A stretch of 64,000 bases of DNA from Klebsiella phage vB_KM5a1-KLB31, in sequence record PP582757.1. One strand, given 5' to 3'. Under the pieces are notes generated by a model, which was not told the DNA's origin, searched no databases, and worked only from the letters and a program-made list of their open reading frames with translations. Every line of letters begins with the position of its first letter. The stretch's first letter is position 1. Shown here in pieces: positions 23,161 to 30,378 of the stretch. The translations under genes were made by a program, and so were the position numbers.

Positions 23161-23385
23161 CTAACTCAACGTATATGTTTCACCAGTAGGCTTAACCGGA
23201 GTGGATTCACATATCTCGTATTGTTTATGGCATTTCTCACAGAAACCATGCCACCAACAATTCATTCCATCACCACCACAAGTCCCTTCATGAACAAAAC
23301 GCATATGGTTACAATTATAGCAACGGAATTGTGTAGCCTGATAGATTTTATAGGCTACATTACTTTTATCATTAATTATCGACAT
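23161..23385 (-). CDS. Cys/His-rich small protein (putative zinc binding)
   Basis: 74 aa with 9 Cys: CYNCNH...CGGDGMNCWWHGFCEKCHKQYEIC. Confidence 0.4.
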   Translation of the reverse strand: MSIINDKSNVAYKIYQATQFRCYNCNHMRFVHEGTCGGDGMNCWWHGFCEKCHKQYEICESTPVKPTGETYTLS

Positions 23386-23403: not shown

Positions 23404-23955
23404 TTAACGAGCCCATTTGATAATCATTGAAATCAATGCATCACGTTCGCCGGCATTAAAACCTTTGATACGATTATCACCATAATGGTTTAGTAATTGA
23501 TAAATTTCAACATCATTATTAAGAGCGAACTCTTCAAACAATGCAATAACCTTGTTAAAACCTTCAGAACTCAGAGAAATCAAATCATCTTCAAAATCTT
23601 GAGTCATTTCATTACGAGTCAGAATAATTGGCAGAACTTTATGTTCATCACAAAAACGTTGGAAATCTTGTTCATACATATCAAGTTCTTTTTCTGAACC
23701 ATTACGAAGAGCACCATAAACCCAGTTTGAAATATAACCACGGTCTAACAGATAAATCTTAGATGGGTCGAGGTATTTCAGCATGGTTTCAAAGCAGGCC
23801 ACTTCATTACGACTCTTGATATCGAATCGACCATCTACGGTACGTTTAGGGAATTCGATTTTCACATAACGATCAGAGATTTCACAAACATCACGAATAA
23901 AAGTCGTTTTGCCCGCATTATCGCCGCCGTCAACTAAAATAATTTTGGTCTTCAT
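23404..23955 (-). CDS. P-loop nucleoside/nucleotide kinase-like protein
   Basis: 183 aa; Walker A ILVDGGDNAGKTTF. ATGA-coupled to the upstream transferase-position ORF. Confidence 0.5.
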   Translation of the reverse strand: MKTKIILVDGGDNAGKTTFIRDVCEISDRYVKIEFPKRTVDGRFDIKSRNEVACFETMLKYLDPSKIYLLDRGYISNWVYGALRNGSEKELDMYEQDFQRFCDEHKVLPIILTRNEMTQDFEDDLISLSSEGFNKVIALFEEFALNNDVEIYQLLNHYGDNRIKGFNAGERDALISMIIKWAR

Positions 23956-24851
23956 TCGTTAATCACCACATCGTTGTATGAAGGTATATTATATGGCGAA
24001 GAAATATAAGCACCAAAGTAAATGAACTCCGCCAGACCTGGATGGAATACTTTATTTGGGTCTTCAAAGTATTGAATCTTCGGACGTGCAGCCAATGCAC
24101 GATAATACTCTGATTTGCTTAACTTAATTTTGCGAATAACAGCTTCTTCTGGATAACGAGAACGATCAAAACTATCATTTGGGTCTGTGATATAGATTGG
24201 ATTATGAGTCTGGATTCCACATTCTACAACCTGACCAAAACGATAACATTCGTCAGAGATTCGGAATGGGTGGAAAATTCCATCATAACGAATGGGAGGA
24301 AGATCACCCATCATCCGCCGGATTACGCTAGGACGCACTACTTTCTGGTCTACGACAATCTTATAGTCAGTAGCCCCATGTGCAACCAGGACGTCTTTCT
24401 GACACTGATTTAATACAGTAGTCAGCTTACCAAAGTTCACAGACTCAACATCAACATCAATGAACTCATCAATATAATAACGAGGAACTTCTGGGTCTTT
24501 AGTTATATTGAAGTTGAAATACACAGGATGCTTTCCACGATAACCAGTTATATCAGTCACCACACCTACGACATCATAATATTCAACTAAAGAATCAACT
24601 ACGAATTGGTTCTCTTCCCAGAAATGCTTACGTGTTTCATAGGCATTTTCTTTGTACCATAAAGGAACAAATTCGAATTCTGGGAATAATTCACGGAGTT
24701 CGTCGACATCAGTTGCATTATGAGGAACAGCAATGATATCGCCAGAACGGGCACGGTGCAAATGAAGCTGGAAGTTGCCATCCTTAAGGACAGCATACTC
24801 ACCAGTTGCATGAGACCGCATACTAAAGATTGGTACACGGAAATGTGGCAT
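23952..24851 (-). CDS. hypothetical protein occupying the T4 beta-glucosyltransferase slot (candidate hmC-DNA sugar transferase)
   Basis: 299 aa; TAATG-coupled to gene 42; no recognisable similarity to T4 Bgt; role inferred from position only. Confidence 0.35.
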   Translation of the reverse strand: MPHFRVPIFSMRSHATGEYAVLKDGNFQLHLHRARSGDIIAVPHNATDVDELRELFPEFEFVPLWYKENAYETRKHFWEENQFVVDSLVEYYDVVGVVTDITGYRGKHPVYFNFNITKDPEVPRYYIDEFIDVDVESVNFGKLTTVLNQCQKDVLVAHGATDYKIVVDQKVVRPSVIRRMMGDLPPIRYDGIFHPFRISDECYRFGQVVECGIQTHNPIYITDPNDSFDRSRYPEEAVIRKIKLSKSEYYRALAARPKIQYFEDPNKVFHPGLAEFIYFGAYISSPYNIPSYNDVVINE

Positions 24852-25549
24852 TAGTCAAGGAATCCTTTAACATATTCGAAGTCACGTTCGAAAACGTGGG
24901 CTGACACCATTGTATGAGTGTATGTACCTACTTTAACACCGCATTGTTCAGCAATAAAGTGCATCAGTTTGCCTTGGAGATAGAAATCCAATTGCATAAC
25001 AACAGCACAGTTCTGTGAACGCATATGACAATGAGCATGAAGCTTACCATCACGAATATAATATGTCACTGAGTCTGTGCATGGATATTCTAACGATTCG
25101 TCTGAATCAAGTAATGCCTGGTCGGACGATTCCAGGATTTGGAACACAACTCGACGTGAGTTTGGTTTCTCTTTGAGTTCCTTAAGGAGCGCCGGTAACT
25201 GAGCCACGATTCTTGGTCCATAGAACGTGTTGAAATTTGCTGGGAGTGCATCTGATTTTGGTTTTGAAATAAATTTAGCAACATTAGGATATTCCTTAAA
25301 TGCTTCTAATGCATCAGTGCCACCAGAAATCATGAACTTCCAGAAGTCTTCAGCATAATCATAACTAATGCGATTAATACGAGAATCAGACATCTTGAAA
25401 GTTTCTGGATGCTGGACAACTAGAGTCATTGAACCAATTTCATTACAACGACCAATACGAGAATCAGTTACGAATTCTGGGTTGTCGATAATTTCACGGT
25501 TGGCTGCTTTGAATACGTCTTGGAAAAATGGGAAGTTAAAATATTTCAT
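24851..25549 (-). CDS. 42: dCMP hydroxymethylase (thymidylate-synthase fold), gene 42
   Basis: Active-site region EYPCTDSVTYYIRDGKLHAHCHMRSQN matches recalled T4 gp42 (MCTNTVQYLIRDKKINAVVNMRSND). Start at Met whose ATG overlaps the upstream TGA. Confidence 0.8.
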   Translation of the reverse strand: MKYFNFPFFQDVFKAANREIIDNPEFVTDSRIGRCNEIGSMTLVVQHPETFKMSDSRINRISYDYAEDFWKFMISGGTDALEAFKEYPNVAKFISKPKSDALPANFNTFYGPRIVAQLPALLKELKEKPNSRRVVFQILESSDQALLDSDESLEYPCTDSVTYYIRDGKLHAHCHMRSQNCAVVMQLDFYLQGKLMHFIAEQCGVKVGTYTHTMVSAHVFERDFEYVKGFLD

Positions 25550-25785
25550 TCGATTGTGCTCTGACATAGTTTACTCACTTTAAAAATTTCTTGATATATC
25601 GATTTTAACTTATCCGGAGTTTCAGCAAGTTTAATTTTTTCAATATCAAGATTTTCAATAGGGATACCGAATTTGCGTTTGATTTTGCCTATCTTATGTG
25701 TTAAGCAAAATCTGTCAAGAAGTAAATTTATAATTTCTTCATCTATAAGATTGACCTCCTCACGGAGGTCATCAAGTTCTGTCAT
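25546..25785 (-). CDS. chorismate mutase-like protein (AroQ class)
   Basis: 79 aa. LREEVNLIDEEIINLLLDRFCLTHKIGKIK follows the AroQ helix-1 pattern LRxxIDxIDxxLLxLLxxRxxLxxxIGxxK. ATGA-coupled to both neighbours. Confidence 0.55.
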   Translation of the reverse strand: MTELDDLREEVNLIDEEIINLLLDRFCLTHKIGKIKRKFGIPIENLDIEKIKLAETPDKLKSIYQEIFKVSKLCQSTIE

Positions 25786-26963
25786 TCTGGGTACCTCATA
25801 GCATCATCACTATTATCTGTAATCGACACAATCTGAATAGAATTCAGAGGCATATCATTCTTAGACAATTGACGCTTATAGTAACGCTCACAATAGGTGC
25901 AAGTAGAACCACAGACTTCATTAGCACAATCAAAGTCAGGATGTTTGAACCAGCGTTTCATTAAGAAGCCGTCAAGCAATGAAGTTTCGATGTTTACTGT
26001 ATGACTGTAGTTCGCATCGGACTCGTTGTTATAGATGGTTTCTAGTGGCTTCCAGAGCTCAAGGAGATTGCCTTCAAATTTCTCAGAGGAATATGCCTCT
26101 AAAACTTTCATGATGTACTCTGTTGACCCTGTACGTCCTGACACTTTAAATTGAGTGATACCGATGTCACGATATAACTTCAGGTCCTGTGGACGAACGA
26201 AACGTGTACGCAGCCAGTTGAATGGGTCGGTGTCACGAGCTTTGATGCAGTGTTGCATCGGGTAACCATCCAATGATTGTGCATCTTCTGGTGTAGAGTC
26301 GGTACTGTGGAAAATATAGCAAGAATCACGATAACTGCAATGAGTGGTATAACCTTTACCAGCATTAGAGCAGAATTCATTGACCAAAATTTCAAAGATG
26401 ATTCCATTGTCATTACAGAATTTAGCGGCTTGTTTTAAGAATGACACACTACGGTTTTTATGAATACCACAGCATACTTTCTTGATATTATACTGGTCAT
26501 GAAGATACTTAATCTGAGTTACGGCGTCTACGTGCAGGATAGTCGAGATTTCGAATTCGATTTCAGTATTAACTTCACGAACAATTTGCATTACGATTGG
26601 GTTAGCAACAGTAATACGATATACGCCAATTGACCAGAGATATTGGACATATTCTTGGATAGCTTTCTTTTTCCATGAATCAAGTTCACGTTTGGTACCA
26701 GGATTAATACTGTTGAATGTATAGTTGAAGCAAATACCCAGTTCATTACAACGAGCTACATATTTTTCGAGCTCTTCATCTTTTACGTCAGGCAGACGGA
26801 AGTCTGGACGAGCGGCAACAAAGGCCATGGCTCGTGTAGAACCATAGACTTCGTTGATAAGTGAATCAGGGTTTTTAGCATTCAGCTCGACAATTTTATC
26901 CAGCAGGGCTAGGTCAAAGTTTGTACCAATTTTGAAAGTTTGTTTATGGTTTTGCATTTTCAT
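25782..26963 (-). CDS. peptidase U32 family-like protein (candidate prephenate-dependent hydroxylase, RlhA/TrhP/UbiU-like); Cys-rich
   Basis: 393 aa. N-terminal EVYGSTRAM and GVYRITVANPIVMQIV resemble U32 TIM-barrel blocks; EFCSNAGKGYTTHCSY resembles the U32 signature; C-terminal CANEVCGSTCTYC cluster. Tentative, by eye only. Confidence 0.4.
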   Translation of the reverse strand: MKMQNHKQTFKIGTNFDLALLDKIVELNAKNPDSLINEVYGSTRAMAFVAARPDFRLPDVKDEELEKYVARCNELGICFNYTFNSINPGTKRELDSWKKKAIQEYVQYLWSIGVYRITVANPIVMQIVREVNTEIEFEISTILHVDAVTQIKYLHDQYNIKKVCCGIHKNRSVSFLKQAAKFCNDNGIIFEILVNEFCSNAGKGYTTHCSYRDSCYIFHSTDSTPEDAQSLDGYPMQHCIKARDTDPFNWLRTRFVRPQDLKLYRDIGITQFKVSGRTGSTEYIMKVLEAYSSEKFEGNLLELWKPLETIYNNESDANYSHTVNIETSLLDGFLMKRWFKHPDFDCANEVCGSTCTYCERYYKRQLSKNDMPLNSIQIVSITDNSDDAMRYPE

Positions 26964-27005
26964 CTCTTTTAAGCAGGAAAAGGATGCGATGTTTGCAGGC
27001 TTTTA

Positions 27006-27392
27006 TTATAGATTTGGTTTGTACGATTTAAATGTTTCGAATTCGCCTTTATTCATAAGGCTTTTGAATTCATCAGGACGCATAGCTTTGTCGTCGATAA
27101 TCCAATCATACACTGGTTTATGTGTCAGCAATTCATGGAACTTCAATCCGATATTAGCCAGGTTCTGAAGCAGGCCTGGAAGAATATCAACAGCAATACG
27201 CCCTGGTCCTACAGATTTCATACCACGTGCCGTATAAAGTGTTATGTGGTGCCCTTGGTCATACAAAGCATTAATGGCGGACACCATTTCGATGTCCGGC
27301 TTAAAGTTCGCATAATCACGGTCATGGTTCCATTCAGTGATGCAGTCATCTACATCAAAGCACAGTCTGAGCATGTTTTCTACGCGATGCAT
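27006..27392 (-). CDS. HAD-superfamily phosphatase-like protein (KdsC/GmhB-like sugar-phosphate phosphatase)
   Basis: Motif I FDVDDCIT, motif II LYTAR, motif IV WIIDDKA; about 128 aa. Confidence 0.5.
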   Translation of the reverse strand: MHRVENMLRLCFDVDDCITEWNHDRDYANFKPDIEMVSAINALYDQGHHITLYTARGMKSVGPGRIAVDILPGLLQNLANIGLKFHELLTHKPVYDWIIDDKAMRPDEFKSLMNKGEFETFKSYKPNL

Positions 27393-29071
27393 TATCTGAT
27401 TCGTTCCCATTGGTGAGTGATATCGCCACCGACTGGCTTATAGACTTCGCCAGTTTCTTTATCGATGAGTTCCCACTTATCAGAGTTCTTCGTAATAAGT
27501 GTTGCCGTAATAGCTTGAGGCAGGTCTTTAGCAACCGTACCATCTTTCAACATACGTCCCATTTTACGCAATTGTTTTGTCAGCAAATACATACCGTAGT
27601 AATAAGCTGAAACTGCTTTCAACGGGTTGTTCTTGAAATAACCACCGAGTGCAATCCAAATAATTGCTACAGCCAGATGATGGTGTTCATTGAACGTATC
27701 CATCTTCTCATATTTGTAGACCAGCGGTTCGATATTAACCATTGCTTGTTCGCCTTCAATGGTTAAACCACCCCATAATGAATCGGCATTAAAATCATCA
27801 TAGCCACTTACAGCATAAAGTACTTTAGCTTCATCATAAAGACGAGGACCATATACTTTTGTGTTGCCGAAATAACCACGTGGGTCAATGAATTTAATAT
27901 CAGCATCACATTCAGTAATCATAGTGTTGCTGAAGTTTGGGTCCCCGTGAATAACGTGATACGGCCGAGAATATTGATAGTTAATAAGATGATTTAATGC
28001 CTGCTTCAGCATAGGCTTCAGACGACCAATCTTAACACCATTCACATGAGTAATCTTACCAAATGAATCAATCACTGGTTGAATACTTGCACAACGATCA
28101 AGAACTTTATCATGAAATTCTTTCTTAAAGTCTTCTTCCATTTCAGGATGGATTTGATAGAAGCTCTTATCATTAAATCGTAAGGCATCAAGAACTTTAT
28201 CAATCATGCTGATACGAGCATTTGATTTCAAAGTTTTAATATGTTCAAACATTGATGGGCCTTTGATACGTTCCATCGTGAAACTTGTACCATCACGAGA
28301 ATAAATCTTAGGCACTGAATCAGATTGAACTGCATCATACCAAGCAAGTTCATCTTTCTGAAGGTCTTTACCTTGTTCGGTCAGAGCAAACTTCTCAACA
28401 TAATCAGTGTTGATTTCTACTGCATTGAAACTACGATTCAGTTCACGAACTTCATGGGCTTTTGCCAATTTAGGCTTATCACCCAAGTCAATGAGATTCA
28501 TCAATTCGGATTGAACGAAGCTTTCGCCATACAGGAAATCTACAAAGTCTTGTCCAGCGCACCATTCATTCATTTCTTCTGGTGTATCACCCATATAAAA
28601 TTCCCAGTCAGCTAACTGGTAAATGCCTACAACGTTACCACCTGTCGCACCGACATTGCTGATATGAGTACCATCAAAGTTATAACGGCATTCATCACCT
28701 TTCGTATAAATGGTGTTTCGTCCCCATGACCATGAACCAAAGTCAGGAATAATGTCACACCAGTTTACGACTACGTTATGGCCATGCAGCATTTTATCCA
28801 TTGTTGCCATTGCATAAGCCGAACCAAATGCTTCATCTACGACATGAATCGTAATGTCCAGACCTTCTTGGGCTGCATATGCTTTAACTGTTTCAACGAA
28901 ACGAGATGCAACAACGACAATAATTTCTTCAGCACCAAGGTCTGAATAAATCATGTACAGATTTTTTAGAATGGTGTCTTGCTTATAGTTTACAAGCACT
29001 TTCGGGATATGATGAGTGATTGGGTATAAACGAGTTGCCAATCCAGCTCCGAGAATAACAGCCTTTTTCAT
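27392..29071 (-). CDS. bifunctional sugar-1-phosphate nucleotidyltransferase (N-term) / APH-ChoK-like sugar kinase (C-term)
   Basis: N-term ILGAGLATRLYPIT...PKVLV (NTP-transferase G-x-G-x-R motif). C-term HVIHGDPNFSNTMI...KFIDPRGYFG (Brenner HGDxxxxN plus D-x-G). Start chosen at MKKAVILG with GAGGA SD. Confidence 0.6.
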   Translation of the reverse strand: MKKAVILGAGLATRLYPITHHIPKVLVNYKQDTILKNLYMIYSDLGAEEIIVVVASRFVETVKAYAAQEGLDITIHVVDEAFGSAYAMATMDKMLHGHNVVVNWCDIIPDFGSWSWGRNTIYTKGDECRYNFDGTHISNVGATGGNVVGIYQLADWEFYMGDTPEEMNEWCAGQDFVDFLYGESFVQSELMNLIDLGDKPKLAKAHEVRELNRSFNAVEINTDYVEKFALTEQGKDLQKDELAWYDAVQSDSVPKIYSRDGTSFTMERIKGPSMFEHIKTLKSNARISMIDKVLDALRFNDKSFYQIHPEMEEDFKKEFHDKVLDRCASIQPVIDSFGKITHVNGVKIGRLKPMLKQALNHLINYQYSRPYHVIHGDPNFSNTMITECDADIKFIDPRGYFGNTKVYGPRLYDEAKVLYAVSGYDDFNADSLWGGLTIEGEQAMVNIEPLVYKYEKMDTFNEHHHLAVAIIWIALGGYFKNNPLKAVSAYYYGMYLLTKQLRKMGRMLKDGTVAKDLPQAITATLITKNSDKWELIDKETGEVYKPVGGDITHQWERIR

Positions 29072-29112: not shown

Positions 29113-29256
29113 TTAATTGAAGCAATTGTACTTGGCCTGGAGCCACATCATAACCCAAGCTACAATAAGAGTTGGAATCATTACTGGGGCGTTAATAGCC
29201 CAGTAAATAGTCATTCCAAAGAAAACAAGCAATAAAATACCTGCAGTGTACTTCAT
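29113..29256 (-). CDS. small hydrophobic peptide (47 aa)
   Basis: MKYTAGILLLVFFGMTIYWAINAPVMIPTLIVAWVMMWLQAKYNCFN; ATGA-coupled to the SIS isomerase gene. Confidence 0.3.
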   Translation of the reverse strand: MKYTAGILLLVFFGMTIYWAINAPVMIPTLIVAWVMMWLQAKYNCFN

Positions 29257-29882
29257 TTGTCACCACGGAGTTGAGCACCAAGTGCACCACCAGGATGGAA
29301 GCGTAGGAAGTCTTCAGGCGTAAAATTACGTGCGGCTGAAAGGTTAATTGCGAATGTATCAATCAGAGCCAAGAGCAATGTCGTAGACATCGTAGGCGCT
29401 AATTTGTTATCGTCAATCTCGATAGCCTTGCCTGTACAGAAGGTATAGTCAAACATCTTCAGAATATCTTTAGACAGGTCTGGATTGCAATGAAGAAGAA
29501 TCTGATTCACACCAGGACGAATGCCACGCAGGTGCGCAACGACGCCTAACATTTCTTCGGTCTTGCCTGAACGAGAGATATGAACCAGAACATCGTCAGG
29601 TCCAATGAAGCCTGCATCACCATGGGAATAATGTCCGGTGTTCAGATACATACTTGGAATACCAAGCGAGGCCATTGTTTCTGAAGCCTTAGTGGCGATA
29701 TTAGCGTTTTTACCTACGCCGGTGATAATTACACGACCTTCGTAGTTAGATAAACCAGGGATGCCTAGAACGCTCAGGATTTGAAGATAGTTTTTCTCAT
29801 CATTCTGAACAACAGAAGTCAAGATGTCAAGAGCCTGAGCCTGAAGAACTAGAGCATGTTTAGCACGATCAATTGGATTCAT
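29253..29882 (-). CDS. SIS-domain sugar-phosphate isomerase (KdsD/GutQ arabinose-5-phosphate isomerase-like, no CBS domains)
   Basis: 209 aa; ITGVGKNANIATKASETMASLGIPS and HGDAG match the SIS core of API enzymes. Confidence 0.6.
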   Translation of the reverse strand: MNPIDRAKHALVLQAQALDILTSVVQNDEKNYLQILSVLGIPGLSNYEGRVIITGVGKNANIATKASETMASLGIPSMYLNTGHYSHGDAGFIGPDDVLVHISRSGKTEEMLGVVAHLRGIRPGVNQILLHCNPDLSKDILKMFDYTFCTGKAIEIDDNKLAPTMSTTLLLALIDTFAINLSAARNFTPEDFLRFHPGGALGAQLRGDK

Positions 29883-30378
29883 TTTTTAAACCATATTCAA
29901 CACATTCATTAACGATACGACCTGAAGAATCACGAACCTTCACAAATTCGGTCGCTGCGGCACGAGCTTTCTTTGAATTAAACCCGTGTTCTAGAATAGC
30001 CTTTTCATATCGGTCCTGATATCCGGCTAAATGGATATCCATACCACGTTGGCACTTATTATACACTGCCATACGTTTGTAAGCATCTTTTTCACGCTTA
30101 ACAATTCGTTCCCATTCAGGATTACCGGCAGCTTCTTGGGCAGCACGTTCACGGTCCATTTTTAAAGCAAGTTCGGCCTGGTTAGCACAGTTCTTTCCAC
30201 ACTGGTTGTTCTGGCGTGTGTAAACGATGCCGGTCCCATTATGCCACTGCAATTTGCCTTGAGTAATTTTGGCATCAGCGGTCTCACGAACTTGTCCAAC
30301 TTCATGATCGTAGACGGTTGGTCCTTGTAAGGCGCATCCGGATAAAAATAGTACTGCAAGTAAAGCTATTCGTTTCAT
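29869..30378 (-). CDS. putative lipoprotein
   Basis: 169 aa; signal plus lipobox LLAVLFLSGC; at the T4 imm position. Confidence 0.5.
   Translation of the reverse strand: MKRIALLAVLFLSGCALQGPTVYDHEVGQVRETADAKITQGKLQWHNGTGIVYTRQNNQCGKNCANQAELALKMDRERAAQEAAGNPEWERIVKREKDAYKRMAVYNKCQRGMDIHLAGYQDRYEKAILEHGFNSKKARAAATEFVKVRDSSGRIVNECVEYGLKNESN

Follow-up and report, generated by a model that had tools for sequence, protein, structure and literature searches.

The 64,000-nucleotide (nt) stretch analyzed here (the window) comes from Klebsiella phage vB_KM5a1-KLB31 (sequence record PP582757.1), a T4-like phage whose DNA is ~90% identical to that of Edwardsiella phages PEi20 and PEi26. On its minus strand, a gene for an Fe-S protein of the U32 family runs directly into a gene for a very small chorismate mutase (CM), and both lie in an operon for cytosine modification. 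From comparisons of sequence and gene neighborhood, we propose that this pair forms an O2-independent, prephenate-dependent module for the C5 hydroxylation of cytosine, an explanation to which we give about an even chance. The features at the center of this proposal are as follows.

25782..26963, minus strand: U32-family Fe-S protein, 393 amino acids (aa), orthologue of RB69 ORF050c/gp50 (84% identity)
26247..26372, minus strand: Cys motif C198-x10-C209-x5-C215-x23-C239, presumed [4Fe-4S] site of the U32 core
25890..25928, minus strand: C-terminal cluster C346-x4-C351-x3-C355-x2-C358, candidate second metal or Fe-S site, specific to the family
25782..25785, minus strand: ATGA stop/start overlap of the U32 and CM genes (TGA 25782-25784, ATG 25785-25783)
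25546..25785, minus strand: mini AroQ chorismate mutase, 79 aa (PF01817, PDB 1ybz)

A preliminary description of this DNA had named a peptidase-U32-like protein and a chorismate-mutase-like protein; both open reading frames (ORFs) are present at the coordinates listed above, and the peptides it singled out (EVYGSTRAM, GVYRITVANPIVMQIV, EFCSNAGKGYTTHCSY, and LREEVNLIDEEIINLLLDRFCLTHKIGKIK) are all found in them. The 393-aa protein matches the PF01136 profile at 45.1 bits against a cut-off of 22.4 (E = 1e-11), as well as PHROG 5757, which is labeled "peptidase." An AlphaFold model based on an alignment of 42 relatives (A1) has a predicted local distance difference test score of 91.5 and a predicted template modeling score of 0.90, and the protein has the U32 TIM-barrel fold seen in Mk0906 (PDB 5d88). 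When A1 was compared by hhalign with aligned E. coli UbiU, RlhA, and TrhP, a three-sequence template that was used because single E. coli sequences gave too weak a signal, the two matched over 279 columns with a probability of 98% (E = 1.2e-12). C209 and C215 align with C169 and C176 of UbiU, the first two [4Fe-4S] ligands, and C239 falls near the third; the ligands in UbiU/UbiV were determined experimentally (PMC6747719). C198, C209, C215, and C239 are invariant in A1, and C198 and C239 are nearly universal among 131 representatives, with C198 sitting in a 10-residue insertion specific to the phage U32 family. Also, the U32 motif "KIEGR" reads "FKVSGR" in the phage family, in which K273 and R277 are universal. 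Searches of PDB sequences with the protein (phmmer) and with the family profile (hmmsearch) returned nothing meaningful for U32.

The second group of cysteines, near the C terminus, had been written as CxxxCxxxCxxC; its actual spacing is C346-x4-C351-x3-C355-x2-C358. All four residues are invariant in A1 and occur in 111 to 118 of 132 representatives, the others having gaps at these positions. Read as C-x4-C-x3-C-x-Y-C, the cluster (25890..25928, minus strand) includes a CX3CX(aromatic)C string that resembles the radical-SAM signature. No Radical_SAM profile matches the 393-aa protein, and the string is probably an auxiliary cluster.

No Pfam domain beyond PF01136 was detected in this protein, and a Pfam scan found no nucleic-acid-binding domain; the C-terminal extensions of TrhP and RlhA are absent. 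The NCBIfam model for UbiU scores 18 bits against a cut-off of 440 (E = 1.3e-3), and those for TrhP and RlhA do not match, although TrhP is weakly seen for one relative. Because the UbiU and TrhP matches are subthreshold and there is no extra domain, the protein is best classified by sequence as a member of a separate U32 subfamily, outside UbiU, UbiV, TrhP, and RlhA. This subfamily comprises 1,682 clusters at 50% identity for E ≤ 1e-3 and 458 for E ≤ 1e-30.

The 79-aa protein matches PF01817 (CM_2) at 38.5 bits against a cut-off of 27 (E = 1.3e-9) and aligns over its full length with the 91-aa chorismate mutase 1YBZ from P. furiosus (E = 2.9e-7); NCBIfam equivalog models for CM match it below their cut-off (38.8 versus 66.95). 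In an alignment with the CM of E. coli PheA (EcCM), R11, R28, K39, E52, S84, and Q88 are kept, and two positions are changed (D48N and R51I). As had been noted, the U32 stop overlaps the CM start as ATGA, indicating translational coupling of the two genes; the same 4-nt overlap recurs in five other loci (L010, L013, L014, L018, and L019). A similar overlap had been claimed for the CM stop and the start of the next gene, which encodes a ThyA homologue. The CM stop (25546-25548) does lie inside that ORF, but the first ATG of the ORF is at 25567, so the overlap is 22 nt; an internal ATG at 25549 would make an ATGA overlap with the CM stop.

The slot occupied by the CM gene is a local hot spot of divergence between the window and PEi20: the two CMs are only 67% identical (L010 11164..11403 in PEi20), compared with 99% for the flanking U32 protein and ~92% for the ThyA homologue. 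RB69 ORF049c was considered as a diverged CM and rejected, as evidenced by the lack of a Pfam match and an hhalign probability of 0.1.

The association between U32 and CM extends well beyond the window. In a survey of 50,697 phage records, a U32 gene is present in 221, all of them Straboviridae of Enterobacterales or Shewanella, and a CM gene in 47, where it invariably separates U32 from the ThyA homologue and occurs nowhere else. Contrary to what the preliminary description had supposed, the genes themselves are therefore not new to Tevenvirinae, RB69 (ORF050c) being among the carriers; what does hold is that the functional link is absent from accessible papers. U32 proteins of ~50% identity are also encoded on phage-like metagenomic contigs of up to 466 kb (the loci compared, that of PEi20 included, are numbered L0xx). 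In L039 and L043 to L047 (contigs of 195 to 294 kb), a 107-aa CM lies directly 3' of U32. In L006, L036 to L038, and L060, a 3-deoxy-d-arabino-heptulosonate 7-phosphate (DAHP) synthase with a C-terminal CM fusion lies one or two genes from U32. In L059, a 94-aa CM adjoins a Tmk-like kinase, and in L005 and L027, a DAHP synthase without CM is directly 3' of U32. R11, R28, K39, S84, and Q88 are invariant in the CMs of all U32-linked architectures. We rejected the possibility that the DAHP_synth_1 neighbors are 3-deoxy-d-manno-octulosonate 8-phosphate (KDO8P) synthases acting on the isomerase product: E values for NCBIfam DAHP synthase models are 1e-44 to 1e-48 for the CM fusions and 1e-66 to 1e-70 for the stand-alone proteins, versus 1e-10 to 1e-19 for KDO8P synthase.

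Gene neighborhoods, surveyed in 10-kb flanks of the U32 loci, are also consistent. In all loci examined, the neighbors are genes for nucleotide or DNA modification, including those for a Tmk-like kinase, GT1, GT47-like, and TAGT proteins, dCMP deaminase, dUTPase/DCD, GLF, and DNA polymerase III (PolIII) alpha. They include four arrangements: (i) Tmk-like kinase, GT1-like transferase, U32, GT47-like protein, and PolIII alpha; (ii) isomerase, nucleotidyltransferase/kinase, and U32; (iii) dCMP deaminase and then U32; and (iv) glycosyltransferase, kinase, GT1, U32, TAGT, and dUTPase/DCD, with UDP-galactopyranose mutase nearby. A sensitive search of the flanks for the ThyA family was positive only in L006 and L028, both with the ordinary residues L143, D169, and N177, and so in many phages U32 is the sole candidate hydroxylase seen beside DNA glycosyltransferases. 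The link between U32 and CM or DAHP synthase turns up in several phage architectures that are unrelated to one another, and each time the surrounding genes serve nucleotide or DNA modification; the suggestion of a prephenate-dependent hydroxylase therefore has strong comparative support.

Several of these loci have features of their own. In L002 (7447..9086, on a 466-kb contig), dCMP deaminase is directly upstream of U32 with a 4-nt overlap, and in L056 (6504..8083) it is directly upstream with a gap of 71 nt. Genes for PolIII alpha, a uracil-DNA glycosylase-like protein, and a Tmk-like protein lie alongside, with no glycosyltransferase nearby, which suggests a uracil-based variant, perhaps via 5-hydroxy-dUMP, in very large phages. 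In L058 (4777..13179), U32 lies between genes for a GT1-like and a TAGT-family DNA glycosyltransferase, near dUTPase/DCD and UDP-galactopyranose mutase; this cluster resembles the galactofuranosyl-5-hydroxycytosine system of Rhizobium phage RL38J1, except that no ThyA homologue is in view. Finally, a recurring operon in L062 to L067 (e.g., L067 3044..7137, from a Phocaeicola faecalis scaffold, and L065, from a BRC1 metagenome-assembled genome) encodes a GP88-family protein, a fusion of a guanylate-kinase-like protein and an S-adenosylmethionine-dependent methyltransferase (~430 aa), a 267- to 282-aa protein, and U32. By analogy with the RNA nucleosides 5-methoxyuridine and 5-carboxymethoxyuridine (mo5U/cmo5U), this operon may be a sign of pyrimidine nucleotides that bear a 5-methoxy or 5-carboxymethoxy group.

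In the window itself, the U32 and CM genes are embedded in the following cluster.

23404..23955, minus strand: thymidylate-kinase-like nucleotide kinase, RB69 gp45-like (phrog_761; PMC13326640)
23952..24851, minus strand: homologue of RB69 gp46:47, putative DNA arabinosyltransferase 1 (phrog_3891; synteny with RB69 and AlbertHofmann; Table 1 of PMC13326640)
24851..25567, minus strand: ThyA-superfamily 5-hydroxy-dCMP synthase of the O2/FMN (flavin mononucleotide)-dependent type, RB69 gp48 homologue
27006..27410, minus strand: HAD-type phosphatase, AfhF/RB69 gp51-like, for UDP-arabinofuranose synthesis (phrog_1238; PMC13326640)
27392..29158, minus strand: bifunctional nucleotidyltransferase/kinase, AfhE/RB69 gp52:53-like (PF00483 and a weak APH match; PMC13326640)
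29253..29882, minus strand: arabinose-5-phosphate isomerase, RB69 gp55-like (SIS domain, phrog_5670; PMC13326640)

The ThyA homologue had been taken for gene 42, dCMP hydroxymethylase, an identification that its sequence contradicts. The protein is 85.7% identical to RB69 gp48 over 238 aa and carries L143E, D169N, and N177D (E. coli ThyA numbering), the signature of 5-hydroxy-dCMP synthases, in which D169N marks hydroxylases (PMC13326640); a dCMP hydroxymethylase such as T4 gp42 would be expected to retain Asp at position 169, where the window protein has Asn. RB69 DNA bears arabinosyl-5-hydroxycytosine, and RB69 gp48 binds FMN and produces 5-hydroxy-dCMP with oxygen from 18O2 (PMC13326640). 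Because the ThyA homologue of the window has the synthase signature and this degree of identity to gp48, the window phage DNA probably carries arabinosyl-5-hydroxycytosine rather than glucosyl- or arabinosyl-hydroxymethylcytosine. Thus, U32 and CM do belong to a cytosine-modification operon, as had been proposed, but with a product other than hydroxymethylcytosine. The remaining cluster genes correspond to the UDP-arabinofuranose and transferase set of PMC13326640 (isomerase, nucleotidyltransferase/kinase, HAD phosphatase, arabinosyltransferase-like protein, and Tmk-like kinase).

A few details of the cluster deserve mention. In the nucleotidyltransferase/kinase ORF, which opens with TTG, the phrog_4098 match covers the protein only from residue 30 onward (MKKAVILGAG...), and translation probably initiates at the ATG for that residue, near 29071. 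Three small ORFs, all on the minus strand, accompany the main genes: a 74-aa Cys/His-rich, zinc-finger-like ORF (23161..23385; CYNCNH...CGGDGMNC...CEKCHKQYEIC) between uvsX and the Tmk-like kinase; a very hydrophobic 47-aa ORF (29113..29256) between the nucleotidyltransferase/kinase and the isomerase, where RB69 has ORF054c and AlbertHofmann has bas47_0152; and a 169-aa ORF with a lipoprotein-type signal (MKRIALLAVLFLSGC; 29869..30378) between the isomerase and DNA polymerase, which overlaps the isomerase gene by 14 nt. A promoter-like sequence, TTTAAA-16-TATAAT (27005..27032, minus strand), precedes the U32 start by ~40 nt and falls within the last part of the phosphatase gene. Promoter and terminator scans of the region gave nothing above chance, promoter-like sites being no commoner than in shuffled sequence. 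Within the stretch matching 24851..27410, PEi26 and PEi20, the nearest relatives of the window, have an extra insertion of ~580 bp, annotated as segC homing endonuclease, that the window lacks.

The distribution of the two hydroxylase candidates among hosts bears on the role of oxygen. Of the phage records, 369 contain the gp48-type enzyme, among them 57 from Acinetobacter phages and others from phages of Rhizobium, Agrobacterium, and Tenacibaculum; none of the phages of these four genera is among the U32-bearing records. All four genera are aerobes. Acinetobacter phage Apostate has a cluster collinear with that of the window, with U32 and CM missing between the phosphatase and the ThyA homologue. 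A genome survey, with one genome for each of 185,579 species, found the phage U32 family at only 14 loci. Loci with at least 44% identity come for the most part from binned genomes or isolates that are known as strict anaerobes: Erysipelotrichales, Gastranaerophilaceae, Oscillospiraceae, other Bacillota, Tannerella, and Phocaeicola faecalis. This phyletic pattern fits an O2-independent role for U32.

From these comparisons, we infer the use of prephenate, the substrate, the independence from O2, and the physiological role of the U32 protein. Prephenate is the oxygen donor for UbiU/UbiV and is genetically required for RlhA and TrhP (PMC10990095). By annotation, RlhA is a U32 member that makes 5-hydroxycytidine at C2501 of 23S rRNA. 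The hydroxylase idea is strengthened because the pathway intermediate in these phages is likewise a C5-hydroxylated cytosine. In the proposed scheme, the phage CM would turn host chorismate into prephenate outside the feedback control on PheA and TyrA, and U32 would take prephenate as the oxygen donor for hydroxylation, releasing phenylpyruvate and CO2. The most likely reaction is the conversion of dCMP to 5-hydroxy-dCMP, in which two electrons would leave via the U32 Fe-S cluster or clusters, following the scheme proposed for UbiU/UbiV (PMC10990095). The 5-hydroxy-dCMP would then join the route taken by the gp48 product, passing through kinases, DNA polymerase, and DNA arabinosyltransferases, such that arabinosyl-5-hydroxycytosine DNA could be produced in both oxic and anoxic host cells. 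The stoichiometry is demanding: with a GC content of 40% in the window and a genome of ~170 kb, we estimate that several tens of thousands of cytosines must be hydroxylated per genome and that one burst would need millions of prephenate molecules, which would make a phage-encoded CM, or a DAHP synthase in other phages, understandable. More tentatively, and with less confidence than we place in the module itself, the short U32 family with its C-terminal Cys cluster may be a general O2-independent pyrimidine-nucleotide C5 hydroxylase of phages.

Several observations weigh against this proposal. One is that 5-hydroxycytosine (5hoC) is made without U32 or CM, both in Acinetobacter phage DLP3 and in E. 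coli expressing RB69 gp48 and a kinase (PMC13326640), and so U32 is dispensable in air. The absence of these ORFs from close relatives with the same modification, which the preliminary description had named as grounds for refutation, is in part what Acinetobacter phages and aerobic heterologous expression reveal; the role of U32 and CM must therefore be conditional (anoxia) or different. Moreover, E. coli Dhakavirus IME341 has the ThyA-type enzyme and no U32, the contrast between aerobes and anaerobes stands on few independent lineages, and ThyA-type hydroxylases could sit beyond the 10-kb flanks. As for the CM, the T4-like proteins carry D48N and R51I/V/L, owing to which their activity may be low; the slot is empty in L020 and, in Mosigvirus (RB69 and AlbertHofmann), is taken up by a 79-aa ORF that is unrelated to CM but likewise ATGA-coupled. 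The four invariant cysteines of U32 fall in the region of the canonical motif, yet their spacing, CX10CX5CX23C, differs from CX6CX15CX3/4C (UbiU, CX6CX16CX38C); two of them align with ligands, and C239 is near a third. Finally, evidence for hydroxylation by U32 enzymes is genetic and isotopic only and restricted to UbiU/UbiV, RlhA, and TrhP, an activity that has never been reconstituted in vitro (PMC10990095).

Other functions for the pair also have to be considered. U32 might be a prephenate-dependent hydroxylase that works on another substrate or at another level, such as cytosines in DNA (as post-replicative patching), dCTP, or dUMP; we regard this as improbable. RlhA and TrhP act on polymers (PMC10990095), and the coupling of U32 to dCMP deaminase in L002 and L056 suggests dUMP there; however, no nucleic-acid-binding domain is detectable in the 393-aa protein, U32 adjoins nucleoside monophosphate kinases in at least four architectures, and the pathway enzyme that U32 would parallel acts on dCMP (PMC13326640). 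It is unlikely that U32 belongs to the sugar branch as a reductase, an epimerase, or another TIM-barrel enzyme of NDP-arabinose synthesis, with CM as an incidental neighbor. Existing labels do point that way ("enzyme involved in UDP-arabinose biosynthesis" in GenBank, "sugar or heterocycle reductase" in PMC13326640, and "sugar-modifying genes" elsewhere), as do the location of U32 between the HAD phosphatase and the remaining cluster and the co-occurrence of the isomerase and nucleotidyltransferase/kinase with U32 in many metagenomic loci. Nevertheless, Acinetobacter phages build the same (tri)arabinosyl-5hoC with only the isomerase and the AfhE-like and AfhF-like enzymes (PMC13326640), and U32 is found without arabinose genes in kinase-GT-U32-PolIII, dCMP deaminase-U32, and GLF/TAGT clusters. 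Hydroxylation is, besides, the only known chemistry of the U32 family, and a sugar function leaves the repeated link to CM or DAHP synthase unexplained.

Slightly less likely again is that U32 and CM hydroxylate RNA during infection, at U34 of host or phage tRNA (to 5-hydroxyuridine, ho5U) or at 23S rRNA C2501 (to 5-hydroxycytidine, ho5C), and so tune translation, a reading in whose favor it counts that T4-like phages carry tRNA genes. RNAs are also the sole known nucleic-acid substrates of U32 enzymes (PMC10990095). Yet the phage protein lacks a C-terminal domain like that of TrhP or RlhA, its equivalog scores are far under cut-off, every neighborhood examined concerns DNA precursors or DNA modification and none concerns translation, and enterobacterial hosts already possess TrhP, TrhO, and RlhA. 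The least probable of these functions is that of a redox partner, such as a flavin reductase or electron shuttle, for the neighboring ThyA-type 5-hydroxy-dCMP synthase: gp48 functions in E. coli without U32 (PMC13326640), Acinetobacter phages have no U32, and most U32 loci outside T4-like phages have no ThyA of the 5-hydroxy-dCMP synthase type nearby. Sugar, RNA, and redox functions are all weakened because the link to CM or DAHP synthase recurs, a fact that the redox function too leaves unexplained, and because U32 occurs without arabinose genes or gp48-type enzymes.

If the prephenate-dependent hydroxylation of dCMP is borne out, then this chemistry, known for RNA and quinones, would extend to DNA precursors and viruses, and the phage protein would be the first member of the U32 family to act on a soluble small molecule. 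In enterobacterial T4-like phages, U32 would serve as the anaerobic counterpart of the ThyA-type enzyme, explaining how phages that need 5-hydroxycytosine replicate in the anoxic gut when the sole known synthase requires O2. Phages of strict anaerobes would depend on it alone for the 5-hydroxypyrimidines of a whole class of O-linked DNA hypermodifications, which would be glycosylated and, in loci with the kinase-methyltransferase fusion, possibly methoxylated. Phage CM and DAHP synthase would pay the cost of one prephenate per base, which would give a reason for the shikimate-pathway genes that phages carry. Also, a soluble phage enzyme acting on dCMP and prephenate would be a tractable system for studying the U32 mechanism. 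Phage U32 loci also point to unexplored DNA modifications in phages of anaerobes.

The hydroxylation module is apparently unreported in the accessible literature; what is known is the presence of the U32 and CM genes themselves in T4-like phages. The arabinosyl-5-hydroxycytosine pathway was described in 2025-26, and the U32 orthologue, RB69p050, is only tabled there as a "sugar or heterocycle reductase" (PMC13326640). That 2026 paper is silent on ORF049 and uses none of the terms U32, chorismate, and prephenate; its discussion points out that two other pathways for pyrimidine hydroxylation (RlhA and TrhP/TrhO) use no gp48 homologue, without noticing the homology of gp50 to RlhA and TrhP. Other accessible papers label the U32 gene a peptidase or sugar-modifying enzyme, and neither U32, chorismate, nor prephenate is brought up in papers that cite He et al. 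2026 (Nat Chem Biol) and Mahler et al. 2025 (Cell Host Microbe). In the accessible literature, which excludes those two articles themselves, we found no link between phage U32 or CM and hydroxylation.

Among characterized systems, RlhA (YdcP) exemplifies the chemistry proposed for the phage protein. It hydroxylates cytosine at C5 in a prephenate-dependent (by genetic evidence) and O2-independent manner (PMC10990095), and it shares the superfamily, the TIM-barrel core, and the "C...CY[IL]" context of the first two Fe-S cysteines. RlhA, however, is a 653-aa enzyme of rRNA modification that has a long C-terminal extension, whereas the phage U32 protein has 393 aa, ends in CX4CX3CX2C, and lies in DNA-modification operons; the spacings also differ (CX6CX15CX3C versus CX10CX5CX23C), with no equivalog-level match. 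UbiU/UbiV, also Fe-S proteins of the U32 family, take their oxygen from prephenate and serve as the anaerobic twin of the flavin- and O2-dependent hydroxylases UbiH, UbiI, and UbiF (PMC10990095, PMC6747719), which is the logic proposed for phage U32 alongside the ThyA-type FMN enzyme. That system is a heterodimer with one cluster in each subunit, a lipid substrate, and a need for UbiT, whereas phage U32 is one polypeptide that carries both of its Cys clusters. Similarly, TrhP and TrhO carry out one pyrimidine C5 hydroxylation (ho5U34 in tRNA) by a prephenate/U32 route or an O2-dependent route, as proposed for the phage, although TrhP has a C-terminal domain and acts on uridine in tRNA, and the O2-dependent partner in the phage is a ThyA homologue rather than the rhodanese-like TrhO.

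A counterpart of the window locus is found in RB69, where gp50 (ORF050c) is an orthologue at the same position with ATGA coupling to the 79-aa ORF049c, which is not a CM. The window CM shares the three-helix AroQ profile of EcCM and 1YBZ, but it has only 79 aa, a shortened H2-H3 loop, and no regulatory or fused domain. Other U32-bearing contigs, unlike the window, encode type I-beta DAHP synthase-CM fusions; there, the same link from the shikimate pathway to prephenate is solved in a different way.

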